From NCBI GenBank assembly GCA_031416075.1, contig JANOSY010000014.1, positions 1 through 64,000 on the forward strand: a DNA stretch of 64,000 bases, read 5' to 3'. Source of the stretch: Candidatus Tenderia sp. (GTDB lineage Bacteria > Pseudomonadota > Gammaproteobacteria > Tenderiales > Tenderiaceae). Position numbers and translations under genes: made by a program. Below, piece by piece: positions 6,649-58,058 of the stretch (position 1 is the first letter of the stretch; each line of letters starts with the position of its first letter). Below the pieces are notes generated by a model that searched no databases, was not told the origin of the DNA, and saw nothing but the letters and a program-made list of their open reading frames with translations.

Positions 6649-7236
6649 TTATTTCTGTGGTTTGAACAGCTCGTAAAGAGTGCCCTGATCCGGAAGTCCT
6701 GTCTCCGTCTGCTTGATACCCTTCTGGAACTGCTTCATGGCAGTCTTAAGTCTGTCATCATACTGGGCGTCACTGATATTGCCACTATAGAGACCGCGAG
6801 ACTTCAGGGCGTTTTTCATGCGCTTAATCACCTCCTCTTGATAGATGTATTTATCAACGGTGATAAATTTACCACCTTGAGCGATCTTCTGCGGCGCTAG
6901 TTCGTTAATTAGGATCTGAATGGCTGTTTGAAATTGCAGCTCAGGCTTCTGTTTACAAAGTGACTCGGCCGCTATTAGAAGCAGCTGGGTTGATTGCCAC
7001 GGGGCCAGGTCAAAGGTGCCGGCCTGCTGTTGGTTGATTGCGGTGAGATAACCTTCCAGCCAGCCACCGAAAATTAAATACGCGTCATCTTTTTTTTGGT
7101 GAAACTCTATAAATTTTGAGCATTTTGCAATCCCGGCACCTTTTATGGCGTAGGCATTATTGCTGTCTGCACCATAGGTGATGGAGGGCAGTAGAGATGC
7201 GCATAAAAGCCAAGCTGAAACATTTTTTAAAGTCAT
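6649..7236 (-). CDS. Exported protein with a C-terminal peptidoglycan-binding (PG_binding_1-like) domain
   Basis: Signal peptide; Cys pair in a helical N-domain (CSKF...LCKQKP); C-terminal LKSRGLYSG...AMKQFQK...TGLPDQGTL pattern. Confidence 0.75.
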   Translation of the reverse strand: MTLKNVSAWLLCASLLPSITYGADSNNAYAIKGAGIAKCSKFIEFHQKKDDAYLIFGGWLEGYLTAINQQQAGTFDLAPWQSTQLLLIAAESLCKQKPELQFQTAIQILINELAPQKIAQGGKFITVDKYIYQEEVIKRMKNALKSRGLYSGNISDAQYDDRLKTAMKQFQKGIKQTETGLPDQGTLYELFKPQK

Positions 7237-7271: not shown

Positions 7272-7302
7272 AAAAAGGGCTGTACTTAAAAAGTACAGCC
7301 CT
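7272..7302 (-). terminator. Rho-independent terminator after the PEP-CTERM gene
   Basis: 11-bp stem agggctgtact/agtacagccct, followed by a T run on the minus strand. Confidence 0.8.
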
Positions 7303-7326
7303 CTCTACAGCAATGCTGCTAGCGTT

Positions 7327-8205
7327 TTATGCTACTTTTGCCTTGCGACGACGTGCTGCGCTAATTCCCATTCCTAACAGGCCAGCACCCAACAGGGCCA
7401 GCGAAGTTGGCTCAGGAACAGAGTCTGCACGGTAGGTGTTGCCACCGGTCAGAGAAAGACCTTCTGGGCAGGTGGCGGTAGCCGCGCAATTACGCGGATT
7501 GAACTGTGAGGTGAAGCGGAAATCGCTGCCCCCAGCTTGGCTGTCGGTATTGAAATTGGTGGCTGCAGCGCCACCAATTACATCCATATTGCCTAAGCCG
7601 TTACCACCCTCAGTACCCGTTCCCAATGAACCAGTGATGAGAGTAGAGAAGAGTGTGCCATTCAAAGTGCTGAGTGAGTAGGTGGCGGTCAATGTGTGGC
7701 CAACCAGACTCAACCAAAGGGGATTGGCACCTGCTTCATCACCGCCAGAGGCAGAAGAAGTCCCATTGAAGTCCGGTGAGCCATCGACATAAAACTTGCT
7801 CCAGCCATCTTTGAAGGAGACGTGGTCGCCAGCATCAGCAATACCATTCGTGTTTACATCAAGCCACTGGTTTAGGAAATAGCCACCAAACTGATAGGTA
7901 AGCTCACAGCCTGGGCAGAAGGTAGTGGTGTCGTTATTGATGTTTGTTATTTTGCCATAACCCTTGAGTTCGGTACTGCCGGTGAAGTCGAACTTGGTGT
8001 AACCATCAGGTGTTATGCTGTTGAAAACAGCACCAGTTGGAGTTGCCACTGATTCATATAAAGTATCAGTTGCAAAGAAATCGTCGAAATTGTTTGGATC
8101 CCAAACAACGCCGCCTACGTTTATGTTTGCTGCCTGGGCCTGAACCGCACACGCCAGCGCAGCAGTCATTGCCGCAGTTTTGAAGATGTTTTTGTAATTT
8201 GCCAT
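7327..8205 (-). CDS. PEP-CTERM sorting-domain surface protein (XrtA substrate)
   Basis: Signal peptide (AQA-A); T/S/G/N/D-rich body; C-terminal VPEPTSLALLGAGLLGMG-RRRK; aggag SD. Confidence 0.95.
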   Translation of the reverse strand: MANYKNIFKTAAMTAALACAVQAQAANINVGGVVWDPNNFDDFFATDTLYESVATPTGAVFNSITPDGYTKFDFTGSTELKGYGKITNINNDTTTFCPGCELTYQFGGYFLNQWLDVNTNGIADAGDHVSFKDGWSKFYVDGSPDFNGTSSASGGDEAGANPLWLSLVGHTLTATYSLSTLNGTLFSTLITGSLGTGTEGGNGLGNMDVIGGAAATNFNTDSQAGGSDFRFTSQFNPRNCAATATCPEGLSLTGGNTYRADSVPEPTSLALLGAGLLGMGISAARRRKAKVA

Positions 8206-8297: not shown

Positions 8298-8313
8298 AGC
8301 ACAAGTCGTGCCA
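8298..8313 (-). promoter_or_regulatory. Sigma-54 (-24/-12) promoter of the PEP-CTERM gene
   Basis: Minus strand TGGCACGACTTGTGCT is an exact GG-N10-GC with TGGCACG, about 90 nt upstream of the ATG. Confidence 0.85.
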
Positions 8314-8340: not shown

Positions 8341-9468
8341 TTATTTTTGAAATATATTTTGTTTTGACTTGCTAGGAGAGCATGGGGTTAATTGGTGTTG
8401 TAAAGAATCCTGACAGTGTGGGGTGCTGTGTGAAAAACTGCTGGGGGCGCGACGATAGTTATGCGCTGGGGCAGGTGCCGCGATACCAAGACGGAGGAGC
8501 AGCAACCCCTGATTGTTGTTTGATATTGCCTTCAGTAGTTGGCTGATTTTGCGACAGGCGGGTATTAGTGTGGGGTGGGGCTGTATAAATCTCAGCGAAA
8601 AAACACCAGCTGCGGCAAAAGGTTGCAGTGAGATTCCCTGTGCCGTGGCGCTTAGCCACGTGCGCTGCAGCGCTTGCCCTGCCCGGATGATGCTTGCCCG
8701 GTCTGTCTGTTCTACGCTGAGCAGGCAAAGAGCTGGCGACAGCAGGGTTGGCAGTACCGCCGAGCGGAAGCCGATGAGGTAGTTGCCCCCCAACCAGTTT
8801 AGCGCCTTCATCACAGGCCAGTGACGGAGTAGTTTGAATGCGAGGCGCAGGGGCGGTTCTATTGCGAGAGTGGCAGGAGCCAGGCCTTCTGTGCAGGAGG
8901 CTCTGTTTCCAACTTCAAAGCGGATGCTGGAGAAGAGTTCGTGATGAAGTTCTTTGTTGCTAAAGCGCAGGCTTTCGGCCAGCCACATGGCCTTGAGGGC
9001 GGCTTTGTAGTTTGGTGTGCCATCGATCCATATGAGTGTTACCCCCTGAATTTTCGCTGCTTCATCGCTGAGGAACTGTTCTGTGGCAGTGGTGATGGGG
9101 CCTTTCCAGGGGAAGCTGCGGTCTGTGTGACGTTCCGGAATGAATTGAGCCAGCGCCTCGTATTGTTTGGGAGCGGGGGAGAAGTTGATTCTGGCAGCCC
9201 AAAGCGGGGTTTGTTCTGGATCCGGCAGATACTCGATCTGGCTGTCGTAGCCGAATGAGTGGGCGCGCATGACGATGTTTTCGATGCAGGCGCCGATGGC
9301 AAGGTCGCTCAAGACGAAGCGTTGATCGGAGAAACCACCACTTCTGCTTTCGTCGATCCAGATTTCGAGGGCTTCGTTGTTCCAGCGGTAGAGCCAAGGC
9401 TGTGAGTTGTCTGCTGAGGGGGCGAGTATCGCTGCCTCTATGAGTAGTTGCCGGGTCTGTTCGTCCAT
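8341..9468 (-). CDS. Nitroreductase-family (Acg-like) FMN oxidoreductase
   Basis: AAILAPSADNSQPW, ERHTDR, AGQALQRTWLSATAQGISLQP, LLRLG motifs. Confidence 0.85.
   Translation of the reverse strand: MDEQTRQLLIEAAILAPSADNSQPWLYRWNNEALEIWIDESRSGGFSDQRFVLSDLAIGACIENIVMRAHSFGYDSQIEYLPDPEQTPLWAARINFSPAPKQYEALAQFIPERHTDRSFPWKGPITTATEQFLSDEAAKIQGVTLIWIDGTPNYKAALKAMWLAESLRFSNKELHHELFSSIRFEVGNRASCTEGLAPATLAIEPPLRLAFKLLRHWPVMKALNWLGGNYLIGFRSAVLPTLLSPALCLLSVEQTDRASIIRAGQALQRTWLSATAQGISLQPFAAAGVFSLRFIQPHPTLIPACRKISQLLKAISNNNQGLLLLRLGIAAPAPAHNYRRAPSSFSHSTPHCQDSLQHQLTPCSPSKSKQNIFQK
8399..8415. promoter_or_regulatory. TGT-N11-ACA enhancer (candidate PrsR / PEP-CTERM box)
   Basis: TGTAAAGAATCCTGACA about 85 bp upstream of the sigma-54 site; an IHF-like TAACAA-N4-TTA (minus strand, 8331-8343) lies between them. 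Confidence 0.7.
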
Positions 9469-9481
9469 GGTGGTTGTCGCT

Positions 9482-10354
9482 CTATTCGGGGGTTGCCAGC
9501 TTGCTCAGGATGCGGCGGGCAATCATCTTGGCGATGATAAGTGTTGGATTACGTACCCCACCAGGGCGCCAGGTGTGGACCAATTTGTTGCGATAAGCGT
9601 CAAACTGGAGTCCGTGGGGGGCGCTGCGGACGCCACCCCTGTTGAGCAGGATTTTGAGCGCTTCGGTGGCGGCCAGTCCGGCGCAGAGTTCGCAGGCCAT
9701 GGGGGTGGAGGGACCGCGGTGCTGCTCAAAGTCCACCGTGGATGGGTCGGCAAGGTAGGTGCGTTGTAACATTGCTGGGGAGAGGCCAACCAGAAAGTTG
9801 AGTAGCTGCTCCTTTTCTGGCAGCCCATCCAGGCGGAAGTACTCTTCAAAGGTCATTTTGCCGGGCAGAAAGTTGAGCAGTGCGGCCCCCATTCCTAGTG
9901 GTGCTGCGGTGATGGCGGGGATCTGTTTCTGGGCACATGCCTCAAACACCATGCGGCGGGCGGATATGGCAAAAAAGTCTAGTCCATCGACATACAGGTC
10001 GACCCCGGCCATGAATTCGTTGATATTGTCAGGCAAGACACCGCCTGCAAACCGGGTGATATTGAGCTCAGGATTGATATCCAGTGCCGCTTCTGCCATT
10101 GCATCAACCTTGGGGCGGTTGAGGTTGCTGATGTTCGCGCCCGCCTGCCGGTTGAAGTTGGCAAGTTCAAAATTGTCAAAATCGGCTATGTGAAAGTTGC
10201 CGATCCCAAGGCGTGTCAGTGTTAACAGATGGCTGCCACCAACGCCACCCATTCCGCCAATAGCGATACGTTTGTTGCGTAGGGTTTGCTGCTCTTCTGC
10301 GGTGACCCAGCCGGTATTGCGTGAAAATGCATGGGTATAGTCAAACAGGCTCAT
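9482..10354 (-). CDS. ThiF/E1-like adenylyltransferase (PEP-CTERM-associated type)
   Basis: GMGGVGG, DFDNFELANFNRQ, PKVD, VDGLD motifs; 4-nt overlap with the upstream acyltransferase. Confidence 0.9.
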   Translation of the reverse strand: MSLFDYTHAFSRNTGWVTAEEQQTLRNKRIAIGGMGGVGGSHLLTLTRLGIGNFHIADFDNFELANFNRQAGANISNLNRPKVDAMAEAALDINPELNITRFAGGVLPDNINEFMAGVDLYVDGLDFFAISARRMVFEACAQKQIPAITAAPLGMGAALLNFLPGKMTFEEYFRLDGLPEKEQLLNFLVGLSPAMLQRTYLADPSTVDFEQHRGPSTPMACELCAGLAATEALKILLNRGGVRSAPHGLQFDAYRNKLVHTWRPGGVRNPTLIIAKMIARRILSKLATPE

Positions 10355-11115
10355 TTTTGTGGGGTTGCCTGTTGGGATGTGATTTCCAGCTGGCGCTGAA
10401 TGTTGTGCAGCAGCTCAACCAGATCGGGTTTGAGGTTGCTGAATAGACTAGCGCGGCTGATGTAAAACGGCGCTCGTGTACCACGGTGCTCGATAGTATC
10501 GCCGGTCTGTTCAAACAGGATGCCAAAGCGGCGCAGTTGCCGCGCAAGGCGGGGTTCCATCATGGCAAATACACCGTCCAGTCCTTGGTTGAGGCCCATG
10601 GCGGTGATTGCGACGTAGAGTCCTAGCGCGACGGAGGGGAAGCGGCGGCGTGCATCATCGTCTTGGTTATCGATGGATTCGCTACCACCATCGGGGTATT
10701 GGGATTCGCCGCGACGGCGGCGGAAGTTTGCGGTGATGGCCAGTCGTGATATTTCACCATATTGGCTTCGTTCGTTGCCTGATGGGCCGTCGAACGCCCA
10801 TTTGAGCTTCTCATTGCAGGCATTTTCTAGTGGAAATTTGGCGTTAGGGTCATGGCTGTCGGCTAGGATCAGCCGAATGCAGCCAGCGTAGGTTTGGCTT
10901 GGCTTGTGGAATAGTAGGCAGTGGATTGAACGCAAGTCGTAATCGTCAAACTCCAGATGGTTGGCCCGTTGCGCCTCATACCCAAGCTCTTCGCAATAGA
11001 CCTGGTGGCGTATTGTATATACCTTTTTTATGAGGTCTTCGTTGCTGGCCGGGATGACACTGAAATAGCCATCAAAGAGTGTCGCAATGGTGGGTGCGGT
11101 CATGGTGATGTGCAA
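10351..11115 (-). CDS. PEP-CTERM/exosortase-associated acyltransferase (N-acyl amino acid synthase type), copy 1
   Basis: IRHQVYCEELGYE, EFDDYD, GCIRL, EISRLAI, FRRR, AMMEPRLARQL, EHRGTRAPF motifs. Confidence 0.88.
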   Translation of the reverse strand: MHITMTAPTIATLFDGYFSVIPASNEDLIKKVYTIRHQVYCEELGYEAQRANHLEFDDYDLRSIHCLLFHKPSQTYAGCIRLILADSHDPNAKFPLENACNEKLKWAFDGPSGNERSQYGEISRLAITANFRRRRGESQYPDGGSESIDNQDDDARRRFPSVALGLYVAITAMGLNQGLDGVFAMMEPRLARQLRRFGILFEQTGDTIEHRGTRAPFYISRASLFSNLKPDLVELLHNIQRQLEITSQQATPQK

Positions 11116-11349: not shown

Positions 11350-12105
11350 GTGATTTTTGATGACCGTTATGAGGTCTTTCTTGCGGATACAAGGGAGGCA
11401 ATGAGCCTTCACTATCACTTGAGGTATCAGGTCTATCACGTTGAAACAGGTTGGGAGTCAGATAAACATCTGGTTGGCGGTAAGCTTGAACGAGATAAAT
11501 ATGATGCCTTTTCCAAGCATTTTCTGGTGCGTGATCGATTAACTCGTGAGTGGGCAGGGGGGATGCGTCTGGTTGTCTCGGGTTTTAATGAGTTGCCTCT
11601 GGCGCGGGTGAGTCAACTTGACCGCATTGCTGGCATCGAGTTTGATCAAAGCCATTGTGTTGAGGTTTCCCGTCTGTTTGTTTTGCCTGATTACCGCGGT
11701 GGCCGCCGTTATGGCGAGGTTTCCGCGGTGAAAAAACGTACGTCAGCCTCTTATTTTGAGGTAATGCTCGGACTGATCCGGGCTGCCCGTTCGTTTGGGT
11801 TACATAACGGTTTGAAAAGTTGGTACTTTTTGGTGGAGCCAGGGTTGGCTCGGAGTATCCAACGTTTAGGTATTGACCTTTTCTGCTGTGGTCCGGAGGT
11901 TGATTATCGTGGCATCAGGCGTCCCTACTATGGTGAGGTCTCCAGTTGCTTTGACCGCATATTGTCCGCTCCTTCTGAGCTGTCCATGATGTTTTCCCGC
12001 AAGGAGGCCTATCGGTCTTTTTCCCGTTCGTTCATTGAGCCTCCCAGCCTTGATGCTGTTAATGGTTGTTTTGGAGAGTTAAATTGTTCGGGTATGGGGG
12101 CTTGA
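11350..12105 (+). CDS. PEP-CTERM/exosortase-associated acyltransferase, copy 2 (divergent)
   Basis: LRYQVY, ERDKYD, GGMRL, EVSRL, VEPGLAR, YRGIRRPY motifs; GTG start after gggag. Confidence 0.82.
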   Translation: MIFDDRYEVFLADTREAMSLHYHLRYQVYHVETGWESDKHLVGGKLERDKYDAFSKHFLVRDRLTREWAGGMRLVVSGFNELPLARVSQLDRIAGIEFDQSHCVEVSRLFVLPDYRGGRRYGEVSAVKKRTSASYFEVMLGLIRAARSFGLHNGLKSWYFLVEPGLARSIQRLGIDLFCCGPEVDYRGIRRPYYGEVSSCFDRILSAPSELSMMFSRKEAYRSFSRSFIEPPSLDAVNGCFGELNCSGMGA

Positions 12106-21220: not shown

Positions 21221-22732
21221 ATGGAGATAAAGTGGCGTACATCCATCATGATGATTGCCGTGAGTGCGCTGGTGATTGTTGGGGCATTCTGGACAACCTT
21301 CACCACTATGTATGCAACCTGGGCAAATTCACAAACTTTTACCCACTGCTTCTTTGTTGCCCCTTTAAGTGCGTGGCTTGTTTGGCGTGAGCGGCGAGTA
21401 TTAAAACCGTTACGACCGACATCTACATATCTTTTTTTGCCACTTTTGGTAGTGGTGGGATTGGCTTGGCTGTTTGCAACCTATATTGACATATTGTTAT
21501 TTAAACAGCTGGCAGTGGTCACGCTATTCTTGGTGATTGTATTGAGTGTGCTGGGCTGGCAGGTGACAAAGAAAATCATCTTTCCACTGCTGCTGCTCTA
21601 TTTCTTAGTGCCAGCGGGCGATGAACTTATTCCCTATCTCATCGATTTTACTGCCAACTTTACCGTTGCAGCCGTCAGAATGGTGGGGGTGCCGGTATAT
21701 CAGGAGGGGCAGTTACTTTTTTTGCCCACTAGCACCTGGTCAGTGGTTAAGCAGTGTAGTGGTGTACGTTATCTGATAGCTTCGTTTATGCTGGGATTTC
21801 TTTATGCCTACCTGAATTACACTAAGCTTTGGAAACGTCTACTATTTATTGCCATATCGCTGATTGTGCCCGTAATTGCCAATGGCATGCGTGCATCAAT
21901 GATTGTATTGCTTGGCCATTACAGTGACATGACATTAGCCGTAGGTGTTGATCATCTGATCTATGGATGGGTATTTTTTGGCATAGTGATTGGTGCCATG
22001 TTTTATCTGGGATCATTTTTTGCTGATCCTGTACCGAATGAGTCGCCGCTCTCATTTGCACTTGATAGCAATACAAATCGCGGTGGTTCCTCCAGAAAAG
22101 CGGTTACCGTTTTGCTGCTGGCGTTAACGCTGTCAGTGGTGTGGCCACTTTACTACCACTACTCGTCTGAGCAGCCACAACTGAACGGGAAAGACTACTC
22201 TGTAGCAATGCCTGATGTCCCTGGGTGGGCAGGTGGTGAGCCGATAGTGACTGACTGGATTCCCGCTTATAGAAACTTTGATGCCGATGGTGCAGGAAAT
22301 TACCGTACGGAACAGGGCGTGGTGAAACTCTACATCGCCTATTACAACTCGCAGCACCAGGATCATGAGCTGGTCAATTATCACAACTCAATGCTGGATG
22401 AGCATGATACAGCTTGGCATGTGGTAGAACACGGTGTTGTCACTTTGACATTAGCGGGTAAAGAGGTTGATGTATCACGCATGGTGGTGAAATCTGAATC
22501 AGAGAGATTGTCACTGCTCTATTTTAATTATATGGAGAGCGGATTTGTTGCCGGTGATACGCGGACAAAACTGGCGGAGGCGACGTTACGGTTACGTGGG
22601 TTGCCAACATACGGTGCTTTAGTCACGGTGATTTCCCCTTACAGTCAAGAGGCAGTGGCGTTGAATAGTGCCTTTGCAGAGGCGGCGGCAGATGCGGTAG
22701 CGGGAAAAATCAGGGCCGCGCATGGAGAGTAG
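21221..22732 (+). CDS. xrtA: Exosortase A with a C-terminal EpsI-like domain
   Basis: Multi-TM; catalytic Cys (CSGVRY), Arg (ANGMR) and His (VDHLIYGW); periplasmic C-domain with YIAYY..Q..ELVN. Confidence 0.95.
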   Translation: MEIKWRTSIMMIAVSALVIVGAFWTTFTTMYATWANSQTFTHCFFVAPLSAWLVWRERRVLKPLRPTSTYLFLPLLVVVGLAWLFATYIDILLFKQLAVVTLFLVIVLSVLGWQVTKKIIFPLLLLYFLVPAGDELIPYLIDFTANFTVAAVRMVGVPVYQEGQLLFLPTSTWSVVKQCSGVRYLIASFMLGFLYAYLNYTKLWKRLLFIAISLIVPVIANGMRASMIVLLGHYSDMTLAVGVDHLIYGWVFFGIVIGAMFYLGSFFADPVPNESPLSFALDSNTNRGGSSRKAVTVLLLALTLSVVWPLYYHYSSEQPQLNGKDYSVAMPDVPGWAGGEPIVTDWIPAYRNFDADGAGNYRTEQGVVKLYIAYYNSQHQDHELVNYHNSMLDEHDTAWHVVEHGVVTLTLAGKEVDVSRMVVKSESERLSLLYFNYMESGFVAGDTRTKLAEATLRLRGLPTYGALVTVISPYSQEAVALNSAFAEAAADAVAGKIRAAHGE

Positions 22733-37793: not shown

Positions 37794-38558
37794 TTACTGC
37801 TTTTGCTTCACGTTGGAGGAGCTGCCTTCATTGGTGTTTTTCCACACACCGGCATCAATTAATTGTTGTTTAAGTGAATTGAGCGGGTATTTCAGTGCGT
37901 ATGCCTTTTGTGCGTGAATTAAAGCATCGTTAGGGCGTTTCATGCGAAGCAGGAGCAGGCCAATGTTATAGTGAGACTCAGCATTTTCGGGATTAATATT
38001 GATAGCTTTTTTGTACTGAATCTCCGCTTCTTTGTACTTCCCTATACGATAGAGGTAAATTCCATGTAAAAGTGGAATGTGCTCCTGGTTAGGTCTGTAT
38101 CTCTCGGCGCGTTGTAAGTAGCATTCTGGCGGTGTAGAAAAGGGTTGAAAATTGTACTCACCTCTTTTGTTTGCTTTTAGCCGCTCTATTTCCAGTGTGA
38201 TAATGTCTCTTAATGCCAACACGTGATTTGGGAATGCCCTTAAGGTGTAGTCGTAATCGCCCCAAGCTAGATTGATTGTGATGGGATTAAGTCCGCCGCG
38301 TAATCTTTCTGCTGCTCTTCCATAGTGAATTTTATCAACTTCCCATAGCCTTGCATTGTCTACCAAAACCTTGTCTGTTGAATTGATAATATCAATGTAA
38401 TCATAAGGGCCGTGGGATTGTGCATTGCCGTCACACGTGATGCCGTCAATAGACATGCCAAACCAACCGATTGCCTCAGCATTTGTAGGCGCTATGAGGC
38501 ATATGCTCAAGCTAAATAGAGTGGTATAAATTCTTTTTATGTTTTTTTTAATGTTCAT
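37794..38558 (-). CDS. Exported TPR-containing protein
   Basis: Signal peptide (AEA-I); GPYDY, DYTLRAFPNH; C-terminal TPRs (AESHYNIG). Confidence 0.8.
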   Translation of the reverse strand: MNIKKNIKRIYTTLFSLSICLIAPTNAEAIGWFGMSIDGITCDGNAQSHGPYDYIDIINSTDKVLVDNARLWEVDKIHYGRAAERLRGGLNPITINLAWGDYDYTLRAFPNHVLALRDIITLEIERLKANKRGEYNFQPFSTPPECYLQRAERYRPNQEHIPLLHGIYLYRIGKYKEAEIQYKKAININPENAESHYNIGLLLLRMKRPNDALIHAQKAYALKYPLNSLKQQLIDAGVWKNTNEGSSSNVKQKQ

Positions 38559-39691
38559 ATGGTTTGTTTGGCACGTATTTTGGTTGACACGGTTAACAAT
38601 GAATTTTTTACGGCTTTTCGTAGTTTTGAGAAAATATAAATTAGATAGCCTTTTGAATGGGGGTTATATACGATCACTGTTTCATGTGGTCTTAATTTTT
38701 TTGTCCATGCCATCTTATGCGGCATTACATCACCTAAAAAATCAAATTCGATATAACCCTCTTGATAATATTGGCGTAATGCCTCTTCTATTATCATTGC
38801 CCCTGGTGATAGTTCCTGATAAGAGTTGTCGAATGATGTTTTAATTTGGCCAACATGGCCATTTACTTGATAACATAAATTATAAGCTATCGCAATCCCC
38901 TCGAATTTTAATACATTGGCGATGAGGAGATTGTGCTTGCTGAGGTAGGGGATGAGATGTTTGTAGTAAAGAGTTTCTATTGGGCGGCTGGTTATATCCA
39001 TGCTGTCTTGAACTTTCCAGCTACGTTGCTCAATGTGTAGTATGTCATTAATGAGATCATCATAATTATCGCCACCTCTAAACCAAATACTTTCCAGGGA
39101 GTGATTGTTGGCCAGCTCTTTTTCGCGTTTGTTGACTTTGTAACGGAATTTTTTCGGTTTTGAGGCGATAAGTTGTTCCCAATTATCTGATAAGTCCAGA
39201 TAAGGTGATGATTCGCTAAGGTATGTGGTTGATAATAAGCTGCTGGTTAATGCTTCATATGTCTTTCCACCTATCTGCAAATCTTTAAATAGGATGGCGT
39301 CCCACGAAGTTGTTTTTCTAAGGTGAGAAATGAATATTTCCATTGTCTCTTTTATGGTGAGTTGTGTAATCAGTTCTTGATGGTATGTAACAAGGTTGGT
39401 CGCTAACTCAATGCACTTTGCGGTTATTCCGGCAATATTTTTTTCTACGAAATAGTAGGGGATAACGCTAGCCACCTCGCTATCTTTATAAATAACAAAC
39501 ACTTTTATATCATCGCTGATACTGAATGCATCGCAGGCGCATTTTAACCATCCTAGAGAAAGTGATGGATTTATATTTTCATTTCTAATGATATTTGACC
39601 ATGCCGAATCCATGCTGATAACAGCATTTTTGAACGATATTTCTGATGTTTCGTATGGTTCTGAATGCGATGTCACAATCACTTCTACCAA
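38555..39691 (-). CDS. GNAT/Acetyltransf_6 (BcsL/CelD-like) protein, paralogue 1
   Basis: KKFRY, EQRSWK, LSPG, FDFLG, K..W motifs. Confidence 0.8.
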   Translation of the reverse strand: MVEVIVTSHSEPYETSEISFKNAVISMDSAWSNIIRNENINPSLSLGWLKCACDAFSISDDIKVFVIYKDSEVASVIPYYFVEKNIAGITAKCIELATNLVTYHQELITQLTIKETMEIFISHLRKTTSWDAILFKDLQIGGKTYEALTSSLLSTTYLSESSPYLDLSDNWEQLIASKPKKFRYKVNKREKELANNHSLESIWFRGGDNYDDLINDILHIEQRSWKVQDSMDITSRPIETLYYKHLIPYLSKHNLLIANVLKFEGIAIAYNLCYQVNGHVGQIKTSFDNSYQELSPGAMIIEEALRQYYQEGYIEFDFLGDVMPHKMAWTKKLRPHETVIVYNPHSKGYLIYIFSKLRKAVKNSLLTVSTKIRAKQTI

Positions 39692-39794
39692 TATGTAATT
39701 TTTATTGTTGAATGTATTGATTCGTTAACGCTCATATGGTGCCTTTTGATGCGGCGGTGAATAAACAATGGCTCTTTGAAAAATAATTCATCTT

Positions 39795-40904
39795 CTATCC
39801 TTTTGTATGGCGAAAAATACATTTTATAATATTTTTGGATCGCGTTGCACTGTATGCGATTCTAGACCTTATTTTTTTGTTAAATATGGTATAGCGCTTT
39901 TGAGTGTAAGTGCTAGTCGCCCATCTCATTTTCATGGGGTCTTTTACGCCAAGTAAATCGTAATATTTTATTCCATGTGCGCAGAGATATTTTGTTATTT
40001 CAAACTTTATAATGTTCCCTGGGCTATATTCTTTGTAGTCGCCAGAGAAACTTGATTTTAGACTTTCGAATACCCCATTGAATAAAATTCCGTAGCTGTA
40101 AGCAATAGGGATATCTTTATCAAAGATAACAAATCCCATTAGCCAGTTATTGATGGCTGCCATCTCTGTGAAATCGTTATAGAATTTTTCTTGAAGTTTA
40201 TTGGTTGTGATCGATGTTCCTGCTTGCTCTTTCCACGATTTTTTTTCTATATAGTGTATGTGTTCAATGAATTCATTGTGGTTTTCAATGGACTTGTATA
40301 TTTTTAAGTGAGTTTCTTTTTGAAGGTCAAATTTTTTTAGCCGGGAAATAACATTGTATCTAAATTTTTTGTCGAGTCTGCTGATAAAAGTTTCGTGAGA
40401 TTCGGGGAGATGAATATATGGAGATTCAATATATTCATCATTTGTATACGATAAGTTGTATTTTTCGAGTGTCTTATTGACATTTTCTTCGTGATAATTG
40501 TTTGATGTGACGCTAAAAGCCAAGGTATCCCATTGATCAGTATTGTTGTGTAAAAATTTTATAAAATTATCAAAATGGAGATATTCATTATCTGCCAGTA
40601 TCAATCCATTCCTTGAAGAATATATTTCTTGAATTTGTTCAATTGATTCTAATTTAATTATTTTTAAGTGAGTTTTAATTCTCTTGGAGTATGGAAAGAT
40701 AAATTTAATTTCGCAGTTCTTTTCGCTTGTAAATACGCCACTTTTATCGTGGAGTGAATGGCTTTTTATAATTGCGCTTGTCCATTCATAAGTGGATGAT
40801 ACCCCAGTGTTTTTTATGTGTGGATGGGCTGATGAGGCAATACTGTTCCATGTTTTTTTTATTTCTTCGCAATCGTGTATTGTTTTGATTTTTATTGTTG
40901 GCAT
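39795..40904 (-). CDS. GNAT/Acetyltransf_6 protein, paralogue 2
   Basis: KKFRY, EKKSWKEQAGTSIT, YSPG, YDLLG, KMRW. Confidence 0.8.
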   Translation of the reverse strand: MPTIKIKTIHDCEEIKKTWNSIASSAHPHIKNTGVSSTYEWTSAIIKSHSLHDKSGVFTSEKNCEIKFIFPYSKRIKTHLKIIKLESIEQIQEIYSSRNGLILADNEYLHFDNFIKFLHNNTDQWDTLAFSVTSNNYHEENVNKTLEKYNLSYTNDEYIESPYIHLPESHETFISRLDKKFRYNVISRLKKFDLQKETHLKIYKSIENHNEFIEHIHYIEKKSWKEQAGTSITTNKLQEKFYNDFTEMAAINNWLMGFVIFDKDIPIAYSYGILFNGVFESLKSSFSGDYKEYSPGNIIKFEITKYLCAHGIKYYDLLGVKDPMKMRWATSTYTQKRYTIFNKKIRSRIAYSATRSKNIIKCIFRHTKG

Positions 40905-41104
40905 GGTGTTGGTGAATGCGTGTTGTTTATAAAAATTATTGTAGAATAACTATTTTCTTTTCTGTTGTGCCCGAGTTTTTTGGCTGAGTTTATTAGAGGG
41001 ATTTTGTTTGTTTTACGAATTATTTTAAAGATAATAGTCTGAATATGGTTGCAAGATAGCAGATTTTTGTTTTTTCCGGCCATATTTTCTAGGCGTATAG
41101 TCAT

Positions 41105-42370
41105 TTATGTTCTAGAGGCTTCGTTGCAAACTTCTGATAATAAATGTGCTGTGTTTCTTCGAGAATAGTTGTTAATGACGCATTGTTCCAAGGTTACTAT
41201 TGCTCCATTATTTATTGAAGTGATAAAGTCCTCTATATGTTTTTTTATTTCGTCGTGATCATCCAGGGCCGCAATGTGTTTCATGCCTAATTTTGCAAGT
41301 AATTTTGCAGTATCGCCATGGTGGTCTGCGAGAGCAAGAATGGGGCGTTTTGCGCGCAGATATTCATATAATTTTGCGGGGATGGCTGGATTTGATGTGT
41401 AGCCTTGAAATATTAATAACCCGTCAGTCAATAGCATCTCTTTGATTGCTTCGCTGTAGGGGATAGGTGGTTTGAATTCGATTATGTCTGCGATGTCTTT
41501 ATCGGCGACCATTTTTTTATAGTCATTCTCATGGCCGCATGCACGTAAGGTAATAACGAGGCTCTCTGAGCTAATCTTTCTTTCATGTTTTAGTTGTGAA
41601 ACGGCCTCAAAAAAATGGCTGGGGTCTCTGTCGCTGGTGTTGTATATCAGACCACTATGAAGTAGACGGATTTTTTTCTCTTGAACTTTTTCGGGGAGAT
41701 TTTTTTCGGCCTCTTGAAAGGTCTCTTCATCGAAACCGTTAGGTATAACATGCCACTGCGTATGGTTTTCTTTTGGGTAGCGTTTCATGCATATCTCTTT
41801 TGCCCCTTCGGTGCAAAAGATAACGCGTATGGCGTGTTTTACAACGCTCTCTTCGATGAATAGTCGGGCTTTTCTGACTAATTTGTTGCGGGGTGCCCAT
41901 TCGCCTGTTTTAGGGTCTTGCTCAATCATAGGGTCTCGGAAATCAGCTATCCATGGCACGCCTGTTATTTTGTGAAGGCAGTAGGCGATTAGGTGCGTGG
42001 TGGCGAGTGGGTAGGTTGACCAGATAAGTTCTGGTTTGTGGTGTTTAATTGCCCGTATTCCCGCAGGTATTGCTCCGATAATCCAACTAATCCATCGATC
42101 TGGAATGGCAAGTAATTGAGTGTGTCGACCTTTGATTGATAGGTGGCGGGCTGAGTCGAGGGCAAATGCCCTGATAGTTTCAACCTCTTTGGGTATCTCT
42201 GAGATAAGATCGTTCGATGTTTTTTCGTATGCTCGTGGATGGGCGCTTAATACAACTGGAAGCCATCCATCGTTGGGTAAATACTGGCTGAATCGTAGGG
42301 TCCGTTGTACACCACTGCTGCCTGCAAAGGGTGGGTAGTGGAAAGCGATCATTAGAATTTTTTTACTCAT
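41105..42370 (-). CDS. Glycosyltransferase (GT4-like)
   Basis: AFHYPP..GSSGVQR, WIADFRDP, IPNGFD, PAKLYEY. Confidence 0.88.
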   Translation of the reverse strand: MSKKILMIAFHYPPFAGSSGVQRTLRFSQYLPNDGWLPVVLSAHPRAYEKTSNDLISEIPKEVETIRAFALDSARHLSIKGRHTQLLAIPDRWISWIIGAIPAGIRAIKHHKPELIWSTYPLATTHLIAYCLHKITGVPWIADFRDPMIEQDPKTGEWAPRNKLVRKARLFIEESVVKHAIRVIFCTEGAKEICMKRYPKENHTQWHVIPNGFDEETFQEAEKNLPEKVQEKKIRLLHSGLIYNTSDRDPSHFFEAVSQLKHERKISSESLVITLRACGHENDYKKMVADKDIADIIEFKPPIPYSEAIKEMLLTDGLLIFQGYTSNPAIPAKLYEYLRAKRPILALADHHGDTAKLLAKLGMKHIAALDDHDEIKKHIEDFITSINNGAIVTLEQCVINNYSRRNTAHLLSEVCNEASRT

Positions 42371-43455
42371 GTAAATGACCTGGTCTTTTCTGCTCGGTAT
42401 TTTTCCAGTACTGAGTAGGTGCTGGCGAGCTTTCCAGTGATGCTGCTGCTGTAAATGGTATGTTGCGTTTGTATATAGCTGTCTTTAGTCCATTTTCGTT
42501 TTGACGGCTCAATAATGCCAAGATAATCAAATAGCATTAATTTGTTATCATGTAGGTCCAAAAAAACCATATAGTCTATAAGATGCCCCGGGCTATACTG
42601 TTTGTATTTCTCTTTGAAACTGGTTTTAAGGCACTCACAAACCCCGTTAAACACGATGTTTATACTATGTGCAAAGGGTTCGTTATCTAGATAAATAATT
42701 GCGCCTCTTAACCAGCCCCGTTTGGCTGATTTTGGTATGAAAGAGTTATAAAAATCTTGCTGGTACTGATTTTTAGTAATAGAAGTGCCCGCTTCTTCTT
42801 TCCACGATGCGCGTTCTATTTCATAGACATCACTTAGAAAATCGGCACTTTCGTTTTCATGAGTAATGGTCTTGAATGTTAACCGCCCAGTCTGTTCGAG
42901 ACTTTTTATGCTTGTTCTGATGGTGTATCTGAATTTTTTCTCTAAGGTGTTTAAAATGTCATCTCTATTTTCAGGGAGTTTTTTCCAGGCAGATATAATG
43001 TGTTGTGTGCTGGTATAAGATGTGCCTGATTGGGTTAGATAGTTTGTGATAGCTTCGTTGTCTTCTGGATTGCAAGTGGTCAATTTAAATGATGCGATGT
43101 CATTTTTTTCTATTATTGAAGAGATTATATTAATAGAGGAGGCTGTTGATTTTCTGATGAGTCCGTTGCGAGTTGCATATAGTTCGGCTACTTGCGACAG
43201 ATTTTTTTCCTGATATAGGTATCTGTTTTTCTGTTTTTTATACACGGGTAGAATGGCTGTTATTTCGTTTTTATCTCGGGCAATATACACGTGTATCAGT
43301 TCATTTTTCAGGCGGGTCTCTGCCAACGATTCAGTCCATTCATAGGTCATTGATATACCCGGTGTTTGAATATGGGGACTGTCATGTGATAACAAGGCGT
43401 TCCATGTGTCACGTAATTCTCTGCATGCCTCCAAGGTTTTTATTTCGATATTCAT
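42367..43455 (-). CDS. GNAT/Acetyltransf_6 protein, paralogue 3
   Basis: KKFRY, ERASWKEEAGTSIT, YSPG, FDYLG, KRKW. Confidence 0.8.
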   Translation of the reverse strand: MNIEIKTLEACRELRDTWNALLSHDSPHIQTPGISMTYEWTESLAETRLKNELIHVYIARDKNEITAILPVYKKQKNRYLYQEKNLSQVAELYATRNGLIRKSTASSINIISSIIEKNDIASFKLTTCNPEDNEAITNYLTQSGTSYTSTQHIISAWKKLPENRDDILNTLEKKFRYTIRTSIKSLEQTGRLTFKTITHENESADFLSDVYEIERASWKEEAGTSITKNQYQQDFYNSFIPKSAKRGWLRGAIIYLDNEPFAHSINIVFNGVCECLKTSFKEKYKQYSPGHLIDYMVFLDLHDNKLMLFDYLGIIEPSKRKWTKDSYIQTQHTIYSSSITGKLASTYSVLEKYRAEKTRSFT

Positions 43456-43462
43456 TAAATAT

Positions 43463-44623
43463 TTAGCCTAATACCGTTTTTATTGCCATGGCGGTTTTGT
43501 TAATTTGTTGTGGCGTTATATTTTGGTGCACAGATAGGCTTAGTAGTGATTTTGATAGGTATTGGGCTGTTTCAATGGTTTCAGTGGAGCTGCATTTATT
43601 AATGCTGCTGTGTAGCTCTTCACCAAAGGTAAAAAGCACACCTCCGGATTTTTTTATGAGATGGTCGTAGTCGCTGCGGTTGTGGATTAATACTGGATAA
43701 GCCCATGGGCAACAGCGTTTTGGGAGTGTTGGGAACAGTGTTTTTGCTGCTGGGTGATGGGCAATCTGTTCGGCCAAGGCTTCGTAGTTTTTACGCCGGA
43801 TGGCTGAAATCTGGGCGAGATTGCTACGTTTTAAGATATGTGAGCAGATGGCGGGGATCTTATCGGCATAATGTTCCATCTCTGCCCTGTAGGCGCTGCT
43901 TTCAGCGGGCGCGTCTGTTTCAATCTGGCCCTGCTGTTTGTTCCTGCTGTTTACACGGATCTGTTCAAGTTTCTGAAGACTGTGTTTGATGATGCCGTCT
44001 GACATGTTGTTGATTGAGTATTCAACAATATGTTTGATATTTTTTAGTTTGGTTGTGGTGCTGAGGGTGATGCCATTTTTTTCGATGGCTGATACGAGAT
44101 TACCGTCGTGCCGAAAGCCGCCACCCTCATGACATGGTGCAAGTTTCCAAAATGAGTAGACAGAAAACTCTGCCCGTTTCCCTGTTAGTTCTAATGGGGC
44201 AGTTTTCAAAAACGAGTGTGACCAGTCGTCAATGATGGGGATCCCCAATGTGTCGCAGACGGCCTTGATTTCCGTAATCTCCTGTTCAAAACCGTAGTAG
44301 TTGATGACGATAACGGCGGCGATAGTAGCTGATAGTTGGCTGATCAGATCCTGATTATCGATACTTAGATCGGCATTGATTCGGTAATATTGAACATTTA
44401 ATCCGGCATCCAGAATAGGGTGGATCACGGTTGGGCAGTGAAAGCTGGGGGCCAGTACGGTTTTTGCCGGACTCGATCTGCTGGATAATAGCGCTCTATA
44501 GATGGCACCACGTGCTTTGTAGGTCAGGTGTGTCTGCGGATCGTCGTAGATTAGTGCCAGAGAGTTGGAGTCTTCCGGCTTGGTAAGATCAGAAAAATGG
44601 GCGGTAGGGTGGGTGCTTGTCAT
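43463..44623 (-). CDS. DegT/DnrJ/EryC1/StrS-like PLP-dependent enzyme
   Basis: APSFHC, INYYG, IDDWSHS, YSFWK (PLP Lys)...EGG, RRKNY, LSVHQ. Confidence 0.75.
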   Translation of the reverse strand: MTSTHPTAHFSDLTKPEDSNSLALIYDDPQTHLTYKARGAIYRALLSSRSSPAKTVLAPSFHCPTVIHPILDAGLNVQYYRINADLSIDNQDLISQLSATIAAVIVINYYGFEQEITEIKAVCDTLGIPIIDDWSHSFLKTAPLELTGKRAEFSVYSFWKLAPCHEGGGFRHDGNLVSAIEKNGITLSTTTKLKNIKHIVEYSINNMSDGIIKHSLQKLEQIRVNSRNKQQGQIETDAPAESSAYRAEMEHYADKIPAICSHILKRSNLAQISAIRRKNYEALAEQIAHHPAAKTLFPTLPKRCCPWAYPVLIHNRSDYDHLIKKSGGVLFTFGEELHSSINKCSSTETIETAQYLSKSLLSLSVHQNITPQQINKTAMAIKTVLG

Positions 44624-44851: not shown

Positions 44852-45100
44852 ATGGCGTTGATCGATGAAGTTAAACAGATTCTTGGCGATGTTCTGCAGT
44901 TGGGAGACAAGGGTGACACCATGTCTGAAAGCACCCTGTTGCTGGGTAGTATGCCTGAGTTTGACTCGATGGCGGTGGTCTCTGTCATTACGGCAATTGA
45001 AGAGAATTACGGTTTTGTGGTGGATGATGATGAGATCGACGCCGAGGTGTTTGAGTCGATAGGGAGCTTGGCCCGTTTTGTAGAGCGGAAGCTCGGCTGA
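44852..45100 (+). CDS. Acyl/aminoacyl carrier protein
   Basis: 82 aa, acidic; PEFDSMAV phosphopantetheine Ser motif. Confidence 0.9.
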   Translation: MALIDEVKQILGDVLQLGDKGDTMSESTLLLGSMPEFDSMAVVSVITAIEENYGFVVDDDEIDAEVFESIGSLARFVERKLG

Positions 45101-45936
45101 TGTCTTTAAGAGGGATTGGGTGCCAGCCACTCTTTCTTAACGGGGCGCAGGGCCGCCTGTTTGCGCTGAGTTACCACCCCCCCCAGCTATTAACGCGCCG
45201 CCATGGTGTGTTGATTGTTCCGCCGTTTGCGGAGGAGATGAATAAGTCACGCCGCATGTTGTCGCAGCAGGCACGGCTGCTGGCGGAGGAGGGGTATTTA
45301 ACCCTTATGCCTGACCTTTATGGGACGGGAGAGAGTGACGGTGAGTTTAGTGATGCCAGCTGGACCGGTTGGTGTGAAGATCTGGTGTGTGGCTATCGCT
45401 GGTTGCGGGAGCGTGGTGTCGATACGGTGTCAGTATTGGCGCAGCGTACGGGGGCGCTTCTGGTGACAGCGCTGGTGCGTGAGAAGGGCGTCACGTTGAA
45501 CCGGCTGGTTTTGTGGCAGCCGGTTGTCTCCGGGGATATGTTTCTGACCCAGTTTTTACGGTTGCGCCTGGCGGCAGAGATGGCTAAAGGTGTAGCTGGG
45601 AGATCCAGTGTGTCCCAGATTAGAGCGGAACTGGAGGAAAAAGGGGTGGTTGAGGTGGCCGGTTATACACTTTCACAGCATCTGGCGTTGCCGTTAGGTG
45701 ATAGCCGCATGGAGTTTCCTGCTGGCTGTTTTGCCGGTGAGTTGCACTGGTGTGAGCTGGTAGCAACCGCTGACCGGGCGGTAACGGCAGTGACACAACG
45801 TGCGCTGGATGCACTTCAGGCCGGTGGCGTTCATTGTGAATTACACAAGGTGGTTGGGCACCCCTTTTGGGGGGCGACAGAGATTGAGGATCTGCCCATG
45901 TTACAAGAGACCACGCGGCGGATATTTCTGCAGTGA
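45100..45936 (+). CDS. Alpha/beta hydrolase 2, exosortase A-associated (TIGR03101-like)
   Basis: PPFAEEMNKSRR, DLYGTGESDG, LWQPV, QFLRLR, VAGY; the nucleophile elbow reads AQRTG. Confidence 0.88.
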   Translation: MSLRGIGCQPLFLNGAQGRLFALSYHPPQLLTRRHGVLIVPPFAEEMNKSRRMLSQQARLLAEEGYLTLMPDLYGTGESDGEFSDASWTGWCEDLVCGYRWLRERGVDTVSVLAQRTGALLVTALVREKGVTLNRLVLWQPVVSGDMFLTQFLRLRLAAEMAKGVAGRSSVSQIRAELEEKGVVEVAGYTLSQHLALPLGDSRMEFPAGCFAGELHWCELVATADRAVTAVTQRALDALQAGGVHCELHKVVGHPFWGATEIEDLPMLQETTRRIFLQ

Positions 45937-46805
45937 TGGCCACGGTTGCCGAGACTCCACTGCTGTTCAGGTGTGGTGATAAAGAGTTGTTGGGTATGTT
46001 GCATCTGCCCCAGCAGCCTCAGCGTACCGGTGTGGTGGTGGTGGTGGGTGGGCCGCAGTACCGGGTTGGATCGCACCGTCAATTTCTGCTTTTAGCACGC
46101 TTCCTCTCTCGGCAGGGTGTTGCCGTCTTTCGTTTTGATTACCGGGGTATGGGAGATAGCGAGGGGGAGATCGGTAGTTTTGAGACGGTGGATGATGACA
46201 TAAAGGCGGCTGTGGATACCTTTATGGCCAACGCGCCGGGTGTAGAGCAGGTGATGTTATGGGGGTTGTGTGATGCCGCCTCTGCCGCGCTCTTTTATGC
46301 CCACCAGGATCGACGTATCAGTCATTTGTTGTTGCTCAACCCTTGGGTCAGGACAGAGGCGGGGCAGGCCAAAGCCTATTTGCGCCACTACTATCTGCAG
46401 CGTGTGATGGATAGGGAGTTCTGGGCAAAACTGTTCTCTGGCAGGTTTGATTTTCGTGCCTCCCTACGTTCAATTTTGAGCTTTATCAGAACCAGTCGCC
46501 AAGGGGGTGCGGTAGAGCGTGTTGAAGCGGATAACCATCGGCCAGCGCCACCATTACCGCTGCCTGAGCGGATGCTGGAGGGGTTGGGCCGTTTTGAAGG
46601 CAAGGTGCGGATTATCATCAGTGGTGATGATCTGACGGCGGCTGAGTTTATGGATTTGGTAAAATCGTCAAAGGGTTGGCGTAAGATATTAAAAAAGCGG
46701 CGGGTTGATTTTAAGTCTCTGGACGGGGCCAACCACACCTTTTCAACTCAGCAGTGGCGTGACCAAGTGGCGGAATGGAGTCTCGAATGGATAGATACGG
46801 AATGA
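45933..46805 (+). CDS. Alpha/beta hydrolase 1, exosortase A-associated (TIGR03100-like)
   Basis: VGGPQYRVGSHRQF, FDYRGMGDS, WGLCDAAS, LLNPWVR, DLTA, ANHTFS. Confidence 0.9.
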   Translation: MMATVAETPLLFRCGDKELLGMLHLPQQPQRTGVVVVVGGPQYRVGSHRQFLLLARFLSRQGVAVFRFDYRGMGDSEGEIGSFETVDDDIKAAVDTFMANAPGVEQVMLWGLCDAASAALFYAHQDRRISHLLLLNPWVRTEAGQAKAYLRHYYLQRVMDREFWAKLFSGRFDFRASLRSILSFIRTSRQGGAVERVEADNHRPAPPLPLPERMLEGLGRFEGKVRIIISGDDLTAAEFMDLVKSSKGWRKILKKRRVDFKSLDGANHTFSTQQWRDQVAEWSLEWIDTE

Positions 46806-47941: not shown

Positions 47942-47968
47942 CGCGATTGCCAGGGTCTGTAACAGGCC

Positions 47969-49201: not shown

Positions 49202-49219
49202 AGGTCACTCATCCTTACA

Positions 49220-50800: not shown

Positions 50801-50937
50801 ACAATATGGGTGCCGCATTCCATGTGAGTTGTTGGACCATAATCAGGCGTGGCTGCCATTATAGGCTATGCTGTTGGGCGAAAAAAACTATATCCCGTCA
50901 GAGGGGTGTGTCGGTTCGAATAGGCTCTTCTTGAGCG

Positions 50938-57744: not shown

Positions 57745-58058
57745 GTTGTTGGTGGCAAAGGGCTGCAGATGCTGCCAGGTCAGGGGTTGTCGAGAGACGC
57801 CCGTACATATGAGGGGGGGGTAACATCGCCTACCCTGTTTCATTGTTTGGCAGTGGGGCTGGCAAATTTTTGGCCCTGATGTGAGCACTGTTTTTGATAC
57901 GTGGTAGAAAGGGTGGTCCTCTCTTGCGCCCGAGTGGGGATGGTGTAGCATGGCCCGGGGAGGGTGATTGGCTGGTTATCGTGCCCGCCTGCCGTTATGG
58001 ATGACCCCAAAGAGTGGTTGACGTGACGGTGGGTGTGCGATGTGTGAGGGGAGTTTGT

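Follow-up and report, generated by a model that had tools for sequence, protein, structure and literature searches.

Bacterial oxazolone pathways, the closest described systems to the one reported here, combine an N-acyltransferase with a ThiF-type enzyme and a nitroreductase-type enzyme. In Pseudoalteromonas rubra and other Proteobacteria the acyltransferase OxzA and the fused ThiF-nitroreductase protein OxzB give rise to tyrazolones and phenazolones, and the accessible part of that account counts 56 OxzB proteins in UniProt (10.1101/2020.06.11.147165). The TrzA/TrzS tryptazolone pathway also uses a fusion, TrzS, which belongs to the Rv1355c family (accessible part of PMC12856293). In the N-acyl tyrazolone pathway of Mycobacterium tuberculosis the three proteins TyzA, TyzB and TyzC are separate, with TyzB responsible for an ATP-dependent cyclisation and TyzC for an O2-dependent desaturation (accessible sections of PMC10404671). 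Both split and fused synthetases of this kind are therefore already published, and the split form is not new, since TyzABC was characterised in 2023. Here we report on three coupled genes in a 64,000-nucleotide stretch of Candidatus Tenderia sp. DNA (contig JANOSY010000014.1, positions 1 to 64,000; hereafter the window), which encode an N-acyl amino acid synthase (Acyl1), a stand-alone ThiF protein and an Acg-like flavin oxidase of the nitroreductase superfamily (FDO), the rest of the window being a complete XrtA/PEP-CTERM exopolysaccharide locus. Homology and gene order are observed in this trio, and the chemistry is drawn from the OxzAB, TyzABC and TrzAS precedents; taken together they suggest, with a probability that we put at roughly 0.7, that the trio is an Oxz/Tyz-type cytoplasmic small-molecule pathway, the product of which would be an N-acyl dehydro-amino acid or an alkyl-oxazolone lipid.

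The trio and its separate ThiF and FDO genes

Analysis of the open reading frames (ORFs) of the window places all three genes head to tail on the minus strand, with Acyl1 at 11115..10351 (254 aa), ThiF at 10354..9482 (290 aa) and FDO at 9468..8341 (375 aa). Acyl1 opens with a TTG, but its true start may be the in-frame ATG four codons on, at 11103. Acyl1 and ThiF overlap by the 4 nt ATGA (10351-10354), and a minus-strand spacer of 13 nt (9469..9481), which constitutes the split, lies between the ThiF stop and the start of FDO, the two ORFs being in different frames; this overlap and gap couple the trio translationally. ORF coordinates and domain matches thus confirm the three-gene operon that a sequence-only reading of this DNA had described, as well as its position upstream of, and on the same strand as, a PEP-CTERM gene, from which 135 nt separate it. 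The same reading had proposed an Oxz-type parts list of acyltransferase, ThiF and nitroreductase, and this is borne out by the family matches given below.

We find that the split between ThiF and FDO is genuine and that an assembly error, which had been raised as a possibility, is excluded. The closest public relatives are three loci from separate assemblies (L005, L006 and L007, metagenome-assembled genomes (MAGs) labelled Gammaproteobacteria, Candidatus Tenderia sp. and Chromatiaceae), and all of them keep the stop codon, 13-14 nt and the ATG while the neighbouring nucleotides vary; because the junction is kept despite these substitutions, it is no artefact. Public DNA contigs match the window without differences where they overlap it (X2 record 8 covers 9453-10982 with 0 differences, in a run that likely comes from the same study as the window's assembly), and no public contig was found that spans the junction with 31 letters on each side. 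Moreover, among 80 public loci, the best 80 of at least 543 confirmed ThiF relatives, ThiF is stand-alone in 55 and fused to FDO in 25. Split and fused states require at least 11 changes on the ThiF tree, of which well-supported branches force only 2, and the two-gene state is accordingly one common condition in a family with recurrent fusion and fission. The earlier observation that OxzB-like domains are here separate genes is therefore true of the trio, but the split is neither unusual (55/80 loci) nor new (TyzABC).

ThiF, an ATP-dependent adenylating protein and the predicted cyclase, matches PF00899 (150.3 bits) and NF006077 (PRK08223), a stand-alone family whose sole name is ‘hypothetical protein’, at 436.9 bits over positions 3-288 of 296 against a cut-off of 266 (437.5 bits in the whole-genome search). 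It falls below the cut-offs of the fused families, with 302.3 bits vs 1170 for NF011424 (PRK14851) and 71.3 vs 476 for NF005901, and a fused relative, P0134, itself reaches only 368.6 bits to NF011424. Still, ThiF shares 78% identity with the 663-aa fusion P0121 over residues 4-287 of the latter, and its best 120 relatives among proteins of 509-2000 aa are ThiF-nitroreductase fusions of 596-749 aa with 65-78% identity; beyond the small clade of the window's ThiF, stand-alone relatives are no nearer than these fusions. Its adenylation motif appears intact, with the Gly-rich loop, R69, K82, D123 and D126 all invariant in alignment A1, and with D123 and D126 aligned to two Asp residues of TcdA. 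We also observed that ThiF is strongly conserved across Gamma- and Betaproteobacteria (61-96% identity over L005-L084), with identity to the window's copies as low as about 20-25% among the partner FDOs and about 35-45% among the partner synthases.

FDO is a different case. Its match to the PF00881 Nitroreductase domain is weak (30.7 bits, cut-off 23.5), and its full-length collinear matches are all below cut-off, namely NF005901 at 150.7, NF011424 at 147.3 and the Acg family NF047509 at 146.8 bits. It aligns to positions 373-716 of the NF005901 (Rv1355c/TrzS family) profile, whose cut-off is 476 bits, and to residues 303-646 of P0121 with only 25% identity. Since the ThiF half of the same fusions reaches 78%, FDO is a divergent paralogue and, by sequence comparison, a paralogous replacement rather than merely a detached C-terminal half. 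The proposal that ThiF and the nitroreductase are the two halves of a fused protein thus stands for their collinear arrangement and for ThiF, but not for FDO. When the FDOs of the 80 loci are classed with a hidden Markov model built from the FDO halves of 60 fusions, 47 loci, fused and split, carry a canonical class (432-596 bits) and 19, the window's among them, carry divergent classes (29-162 bits), with at least 11 changes of class on the ThiF tree. In 66 of the 80 loci ThiF has an FDO, either as a fusion or within 4 kb; none was found in the remaining 14, 7 of which have less than 3 kb of sequence downstream of ThiF. The window-type FDO family comprises 172 representatives at E 1e-30 or better and is overwhelmingly stand-alone, at about 350 aa, with 7 of the best 150 matches in the representative FDO search exceeding 600 aa. 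Among proteins of 658-2000 aa no fusion with a window-type FDO was found at E 1e-20 or better, a length range whose floor lies above most of the typical fusions of about 650-665 aa.

Despite this divergence FDO looks functional, judging from its residues. Sixteen columns are invariant over 15 divergent FDOs, including R113, R117, R269, W271, Q282, P283, R326, G328 and R339, and R113 and R117 form part of an RxTxR motif that we take to bind the phosphate of flavin mononucleotide (FMN). The best match among solved structures is Acg (PDB ID 2YMV, E 7.9e-06). By profile offset R168 and Q282 would fall near R540 and Q651 of TrzS, residues that matter according to the mutagenesis reported in the accessible part of PMC12856293. 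Window-type FDOs also occur, with 46-49% identity, in four Rhodanobacter / Lysobacterales MAG loci (L044, L052, L058 and L059). In two further loci (L037 and L042, from Methylomonas and a gammaproteobacterial MAG) a gene for an S-adenosylmethionine-dependent methyltransferase immediately follows FDO and precedes an EDSAP-1-family PEP-CTERM gene, and this methyltransferase is possibly a tailoring step.

The third member of the trio, Acyl1, scores 239.3 bits to TIGR03694, an acyltransferase family associated with PEP-CTERM/exosortase systems (cut-off 111.95), and matches the Pfam families Acetyltransf_5, Autoind_synth and FeeM. On the synthase tree it belongs to a clade of four rows (100* support), all of them directly upstream of ThiF. 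Where at least 1.2 kb of upstream sequence is available (73 loci), 31 loci have a synthase directly upstream of ThiF on the same strand, and these 31 belong to two deeply separated families, with 20 of the TIGR03694 type and 11 of the FeeM type (PF21926). We take this recurrent pairing of two unrelated synthase families with ThiF to point to an N-acyl amino acid as the ThiF substrate. Twelve of 22 fused loci are oxzAB-like, with the acyltransferase directly upstream, and 8 split loci have the trio order of the window. Of the related loci, 46 span at least 20 kb (hereafter the full-length loci); among these a synthase is present somewhere in 35 and adjacent to ThiF in 24, and in 5/5 checked genomes that lack a synthase near ThiF one is encoded elsewhere.

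A second TIGR03694 synthase, Acyl2, is divergently transcribed at 11350..12105 on the plus strand (140.2 bits) and falls in a clade of ten synthases (99* support), none of which is ThiF-adjacent. The genome holds three TIGR03694 genes altogether, Acyl1 and Acyl2 facing each other across a 234-nt spacer and the third being on a different contig, at G000:C92:23687-24379 (240.5 bits). Separately, a FeeM-type synthase was found elsewhere in two checked genomes whose loci have a Rhodanobacter-type gene order.

Linkage to XrtA and PEP-CTERM genes

A PEP-CTERM-like ORF lies within 4.5 kb of ThiF in 34 of the 46 full-length loci, such an ORF or a synthase is present in 45, and further XrtA-system markers, PrsT-like proteins being counted, are found in 26. 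There are 38 occurrences of the PEP-CTERM pattern over 470 kb near ThiF, compared with 4 over 489 kb at the periphery of these same loci and 13 over the complete 3.49-Mb genome. One homology cluster, which includes the window's protein, holds 32 of the 54 ThiF-neighbouring PEP-CTERM ORFs. Among the 53 public ones the cut-offs are reached by 8 for PepA, 8 for EDSAP-1 and 3 for THxN, and most of the others, like the window's, give sub-threshold matches to PepA. The same tendency is seen at the level of whole genomes. In a phylum sample of 331 genomes, 9 are ThiF-positive, by which we mean that they encode a ThiF at the level of NF006077, and XrtA exceeds its cut-off in 7 of these 9 vs 14 of the 322 others, while TIGR03694 is present in 7 of the 9 vs 8 of the 322. 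The seven genomes with both ThiF and XrtA span five families, and in 5/5 cases where the two share one contig they lie 10-37 kb apart. We conclude that the module is an accessory of XrtA/PEP-CTERM loci.

In the window the gene 135 nt downstream of FDO (7327..8205, minus strand) encodes a PepA-like PEP-CTERM surface protein that matches PF07589 (29.3 bits, cut-off 20.7) and TIGR02595 (25.2 bits, cut-off 16), and over its full length NF033554, where with 46.8 vs 80 bits it remains under the PepA family cut-off. A sigma-54-type promoter-like site, TGGCACGACTTGTGCT, lies on the minus strand at 8298..8313, 93 nt upstream of the PEP-CTERM ATG. With 2 matches of the pattern in the window vs 1.13 expected the count is not significant, and it is the position and conservation of the site, not the window-wide count, for which we retain it: a sigma-54-type motif is found at -107 to -109 in L005-L007, at the same offset, even though identity to L005 is only about 70-77% over this stretch, and such sites, which have a background rate of 0.004 per 250 nt, precede 12 of the 54 PEP-CTERM ORFs that neighbour ThiF. 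The same bases also fold as a weak terminator-like hairpin. A further, strong terminator-like hairpin, with a 16-bp stem and a T run, follows the gene at 7272..7306 (minus strand), and no promoter was identified in the 234-nt spacer between Acyl1 and Acyl2. Because of its apparent own sigma-54-type promoter and terminator, the PEP-CTERM gene is probably its own transcription unit, with the trio probably transcribed as a separate operon from the Acyl1/Acyl2 spacer; it is the neighbour of the trio, as had been noted, but probably no member of its operon. Riverine metatranscriptome RNA contigs from a relative (X16, 3-9% differences) cover the PEP-CTERM gene only (7346-8164), which fits with pepA-type genes being well expressed in nature, the contigs themselves giving no expression levels.

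Downstream of the PEP-CTERM gene lies a gene for a secreted protein with a peptidoglycan-binding domain (6649..7236, minus strand; PF01471, 27.3 bits), which is kept after pepA in L005-L007 with 76-88% identity. Comparison with L005, the nearest of the public relatives, shows that this gene was exchanged together with its neighbours. In chunks of 300 nt, identity to L005 is mostly 95-99% (lowest 93%) from 9601 rightwards, over most of ThiF, Acyl1, Acyl2 and the exopolysaccharide genes, and drops to 69-77% from 9600 leftwards, over the end of ThiF, FDO, pepA and the peptidoglycan-binding gene; left of about 6660, where the window has PrsT, there is no similarity to L005. The approximate breakpoint (9500..9600) is thus at the ThiF/FDO junction, in the 3' end of ThiF. 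At the protein level FDO is closer to L006 (79%) than to L005 (64%), and ThiF is closer to L005 (96%) than to L006 (88%). Combined with the drop in identity, this shows that FDO, pepA and the peptidoglycan-binding gene were exchanged as a block. The exchange could reflect an FDO that is functionally matched to PepA, or could equally reflect hitch-hiking of FDO with a fast-evolving surface protein.

The remaining XrtA locus comprises PrsT, export, chain-length and tyrosine-kinase genes, XrtA itself (21221-22732, 314.2 bits, cut-off 208), glycosyltransferases, an amidotransferase, a FemAB-like gene and an XrtA-system polysaccharide deacetylase. A second acyl-activating cassette at 45100-50818, with hydrolases 1 and 2, a pyridoxal-phosphate-dependent decarboxylase and an AMP-forming acyl-CoA ligase (TIGR03098-TIGR03101), could be a source of acyl groups or a competitor for them. 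Within the exopolysaccharide locus we also noted six consecutive ORFs of 254-421 aa at 37794-44623 (minus strand) without an NCBIfam match at E 1e-10 or better, and, unrelated to the trio, a 648-aa ankyrin-repeat protein at 58014-59960 (plus strand) with sub-threshold matches to ankyrin families. The genome has a second exosortase-like gene at G000:C45:49749-50525, which with 191.7 bits is under the XrtA cut-off.

What the trio might make

If the trio works like its characterised counterparts, Acyl1 would N-acylate an amino acid from an acyl-CoA or acyl-carrier-protein (acyl-ACP) donor, ThiF would adenylate the carboxylate of the resulting N-acyl amino acid, upon which the amide oxygen would close the oxazolone ring, and FDO, as an FMN oxidase, would desaturate the C-alpha to C-beta bond, giving the N-acyl dehydro-amino acid or alkyl-oxazolone lipid as the end product. 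Since the module sits in XrtA/PEP-CTERM loci beside an apparently sigma-54-driven pepA-type gene, this product probably acts in the floc/exopolysaccharide surface programme, where it could serve as a signal, as a lipid of the envelope or as a reactive lipid donor, and it may have a role in anchoring or decorating XrtA substrates.

Several points weigh against this interpretation. To our knowledge no member of the proteobacterial XrtA-linked clade has a known product. No synthase is found within 10 kb in 11 of the 46 full-length loci, and Rhodanobacter-type loci have the order FDO, pepA, ThiF with no synthase nearby. XrtA was not found in two ThiF-positive genomes (G176 and G196), both of which have an adjacent synthase, so the pathway is not strictly exosortase-dependent; moreover the counted genomes are related to one another, which overstates their independence, and the co-occurrence counts therefore describe a tendency and are not a statistical test. 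As to the enzymes, ThiF and FDO are both under the cut-offs of the fused families NF011424 and NF005901, FDO scores equally for the Rv1355c (TrzS) and Acg-type families (150.7 vs 146.8 bits), and the Acg-type FDOs of M. tuberculosis are held, in the accessible sections of PMC10404671, not to act in oxazolone synthesis.

Of the alternatives the one that survives best keeps the acyl chemistry and changes its acceptor: the adenylated N-acyl amino acid would be passed to another nucleophile, such as an amine of deacetylated exopolysaccharide, a PepA residue or a lipid head group, and FDO would tailor the resulting conjugate. Adenylation of a carboxylate followed by attack of varied nucleophiles is common to ThiF-like enzymes (accessible part of PMC12596934), and the locus encodes the XrtA-system polysaccharide deacetylase, a FemAB-family protein and amidotransferases. 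In addition, a close PEP-CTERM gene is steadier than an adjacent synthase (34 vs 24 of the 46 loci), and the FDO subtype has been repeatedly swapped while ThiF stays 61-78% identical. Nonetheless we regard this route as unlikely, since all three characterised systems release free oxazolones, the trio has no dedicated transferase and nothing shows such an acceptor. A related and rather speculative idea, to which we give little weight, is that the trio is the small-molecule arm of the XrtA/PEP-CTERM system, with an electrophilic acyl-azlactone or acyl-adenylate as the lipid partner joined covalently to processed PepA-type proteins or to deacetylated exopolysaccharide; an FDO variant matched to a PepA variant would then account for the cassette-like exchange of FDO, pepA and the peptidoglycan-binding gene.

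It is also conceivable that the substrate of ThiF and FDO is the PEP-CTERM protein or a peptide, for instance the cytoplasm-facing C-terminal tail of that protein, in a manner similar to E1-like enzymes of the MccB or thiazole/oxazole-modified microcin (TOMM) type that work with a flavin dehydrogenase, with the acyltransferase unrelated. The order FDO, pepA-like gene, ThiF with synthase-free flanks in L044, L058 and L059 (and the same order in L052, on a short contig that cuts FDO) would suit such a modification, as would the joint exchange of FDO, pepA and the peptidoglycan-binding gene relative to L005, and the substrates of most characterised ThiF-like enzymes are proteins, peptides or tRNA (accessible part of PMC12596934). 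We nevertheless consider it improbable: ThiF is paired recurrently with N-acyl amino acid synthases of two unrelated families, the 5/5 genomes without a nearby synthase encode one elsewhere, and the PEP-CTERM proteins encoded beside ThiF come from no fewer than three families (PepA, EDSAP-1 and THxN), a diversity that does not suit a specific protein substrate. Nor did the ORF scan of the window give a docking-scaffold gene or any member of the YcaO family, the latter among 44 further ORFs (at least 150 aa, E 1e-10 or better) plus 7 ORFs.

Finally, that the window ThiF is a MoeB/ThiF/TcdA-type sulfur-carrier or tRNA-modifying E1-like enzyme with coincidental neighbours is hardly tenable, for although it shares their Pfam domain and TcdA, ThiF and MoeB are its best solved-structure matches (54-57 bits), it scores at most 88 bits, always under cut-off, for the MoeB, ThiF, TcdA, MoeZ and UbaA families (TIGR02356 87.8 vs 275, TcdA NF011696 57.9 vs 304, MoeB NF006444 79.7 vs 449) compared with 437 for NF006077, it has no rhodanese domain, the tight packing of the trio leaves no room for a ThiS/MoaD-type gene, the genome holds other ThiF-superfamily genes elsewhere, and the ThiF proteins of its relatives are fused to FDO. 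The expectation that this ThiF would cluster outside the MoeB/TcdA clades has thus held. A further ThiF-like match near another PEP-CTERM gene of the genome (C17:34447-35238) was set aside, being TcdA-like by its N-terminal sequence and having unrelated ORFs in between.

The exosortase context and known systems

By themselves the enzymes of the Oxz/Tyz-type pathway that we propose add little, and the value of the locus lies in its exosortase context. As far as we know, what the PEP-CTERM/exosortase A system and its associated N-acyl amino acid synthases do biochemically has been an open question ever since the 2006 description of that system. The linkage seen here makes the role of these synthases experimentally approachable: a Gamma- and Betaproteobacterial clade combines a conserved ThiF (61-78% across the classes) with an interchangeable FDO, beside a PepA-, EDSAP-1- or THxN-type gene in about three quarters of the full-length loci, which yields a concrete hypothesis to test, namely that the floc/exopolysaccharide surface programme includes oxazolone or dehydro-N-acyl amino acid lipids. 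Tractable carriers of such loci include Janthinobacterium, Azoarcus, Thauera, Aromatoleum and Methylomonas isolates. This steady linkage of a lipid pathway to pepA-type genes and XrtA is apparently unpublished. In the literature searched, with the published versions of de Rond and Craig 2011 outside the check, we found no discussion of an oxazolone pathway in connection with exosortase or PEP-CTERM, in agreement with the sequence-only reading, which knew of no demonstration of such a link. PEP-CTERM and exosortase go unmentioned in the accessible parts of the OxzAB and TrzAS papers (10.1101/2020.06.11.147165 and PMC12856293) and of a 2025 ThiF review (PMC12596934), as well as in the abstract and sections 5 and 11 of the TyzABC paper (PMC10404671). 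Conversely, the words ThiF, nitroreductase and acyltransferase are all absent from the founding PEP-CTERM paper (PMC1569441), and two ThiF-type genes are tabulated without comment in a PEP-CTERM exopolysaccharide cluster of Rubrivivax (PMC3684757).

The surroundings of the trio resemble the pepA-prsT loci of Aquincola tertiaricarbonis and Zoogloea resiniphila, where a PepA-like gene lies beside prsT with a sigma-54-type site upstream, although the window's protein scores under the PepA cut-off (46.8 vs 80 bits). In Aquincola the pepA gene beside prsT is RpoN-dependent, and the words ThiF, nitroreductase, acyltransferase and N-acyl do not occur in the accessible part of that paper (PMC9850573). 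Similar to TrzA/TrzS, the trio is predicted to provide the same three activities, and FDO reaches 150.7 bits to the TrzS family NF005901; however, TrzS is a fusion, and both window proteins are well under the 476-bit cut-off of that family (ThiF 71.3, FDO 150.7). With OxzAB the trio shares a proteobacterial N-acyltransferase directly upstream of ThiF and nitroreductase domains, a likeness that runs through fused relatives, in that proteins 65-78% identical to the window ThiF are fused to an FDO in the manner of OxzB. Unlike in OxzB, the two domains are here separate genes, and FDO has just 25% identity to the corresponding half of the nearest fusions. In its parts the trio is most like TyzABC, with a LuxI/FeeM-fold N-acyltransferase and with a ThiF cyclase (about 300 aa) and an FDO (about 370 aa) that are both stand-alone, the likeness to TyzB and TyzC being one of description; the Tyz system belongs to another phylum, the window's acyltransferase is of the TIGR03694 type, and the neighbours differ, with cysK, cysE and mmpL9 at Tyz and pepA, prsT and XrtA exopolysaccharide genes in the window. 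The TIGR03694-type synthases of Craig, Cherry and Brady 2011 (J Bacteriol) are comparable to both acyltransferases of the window, which exceed the TIGR03694 cut-off inside an XrtA locus, and that work reportedly stops at long-chain N-acyl amino acids. In the window, by contrast, translational coupling joins Acyl1 to ThiF and FDO, so that further processing of its N-acyl amino acid is implied.

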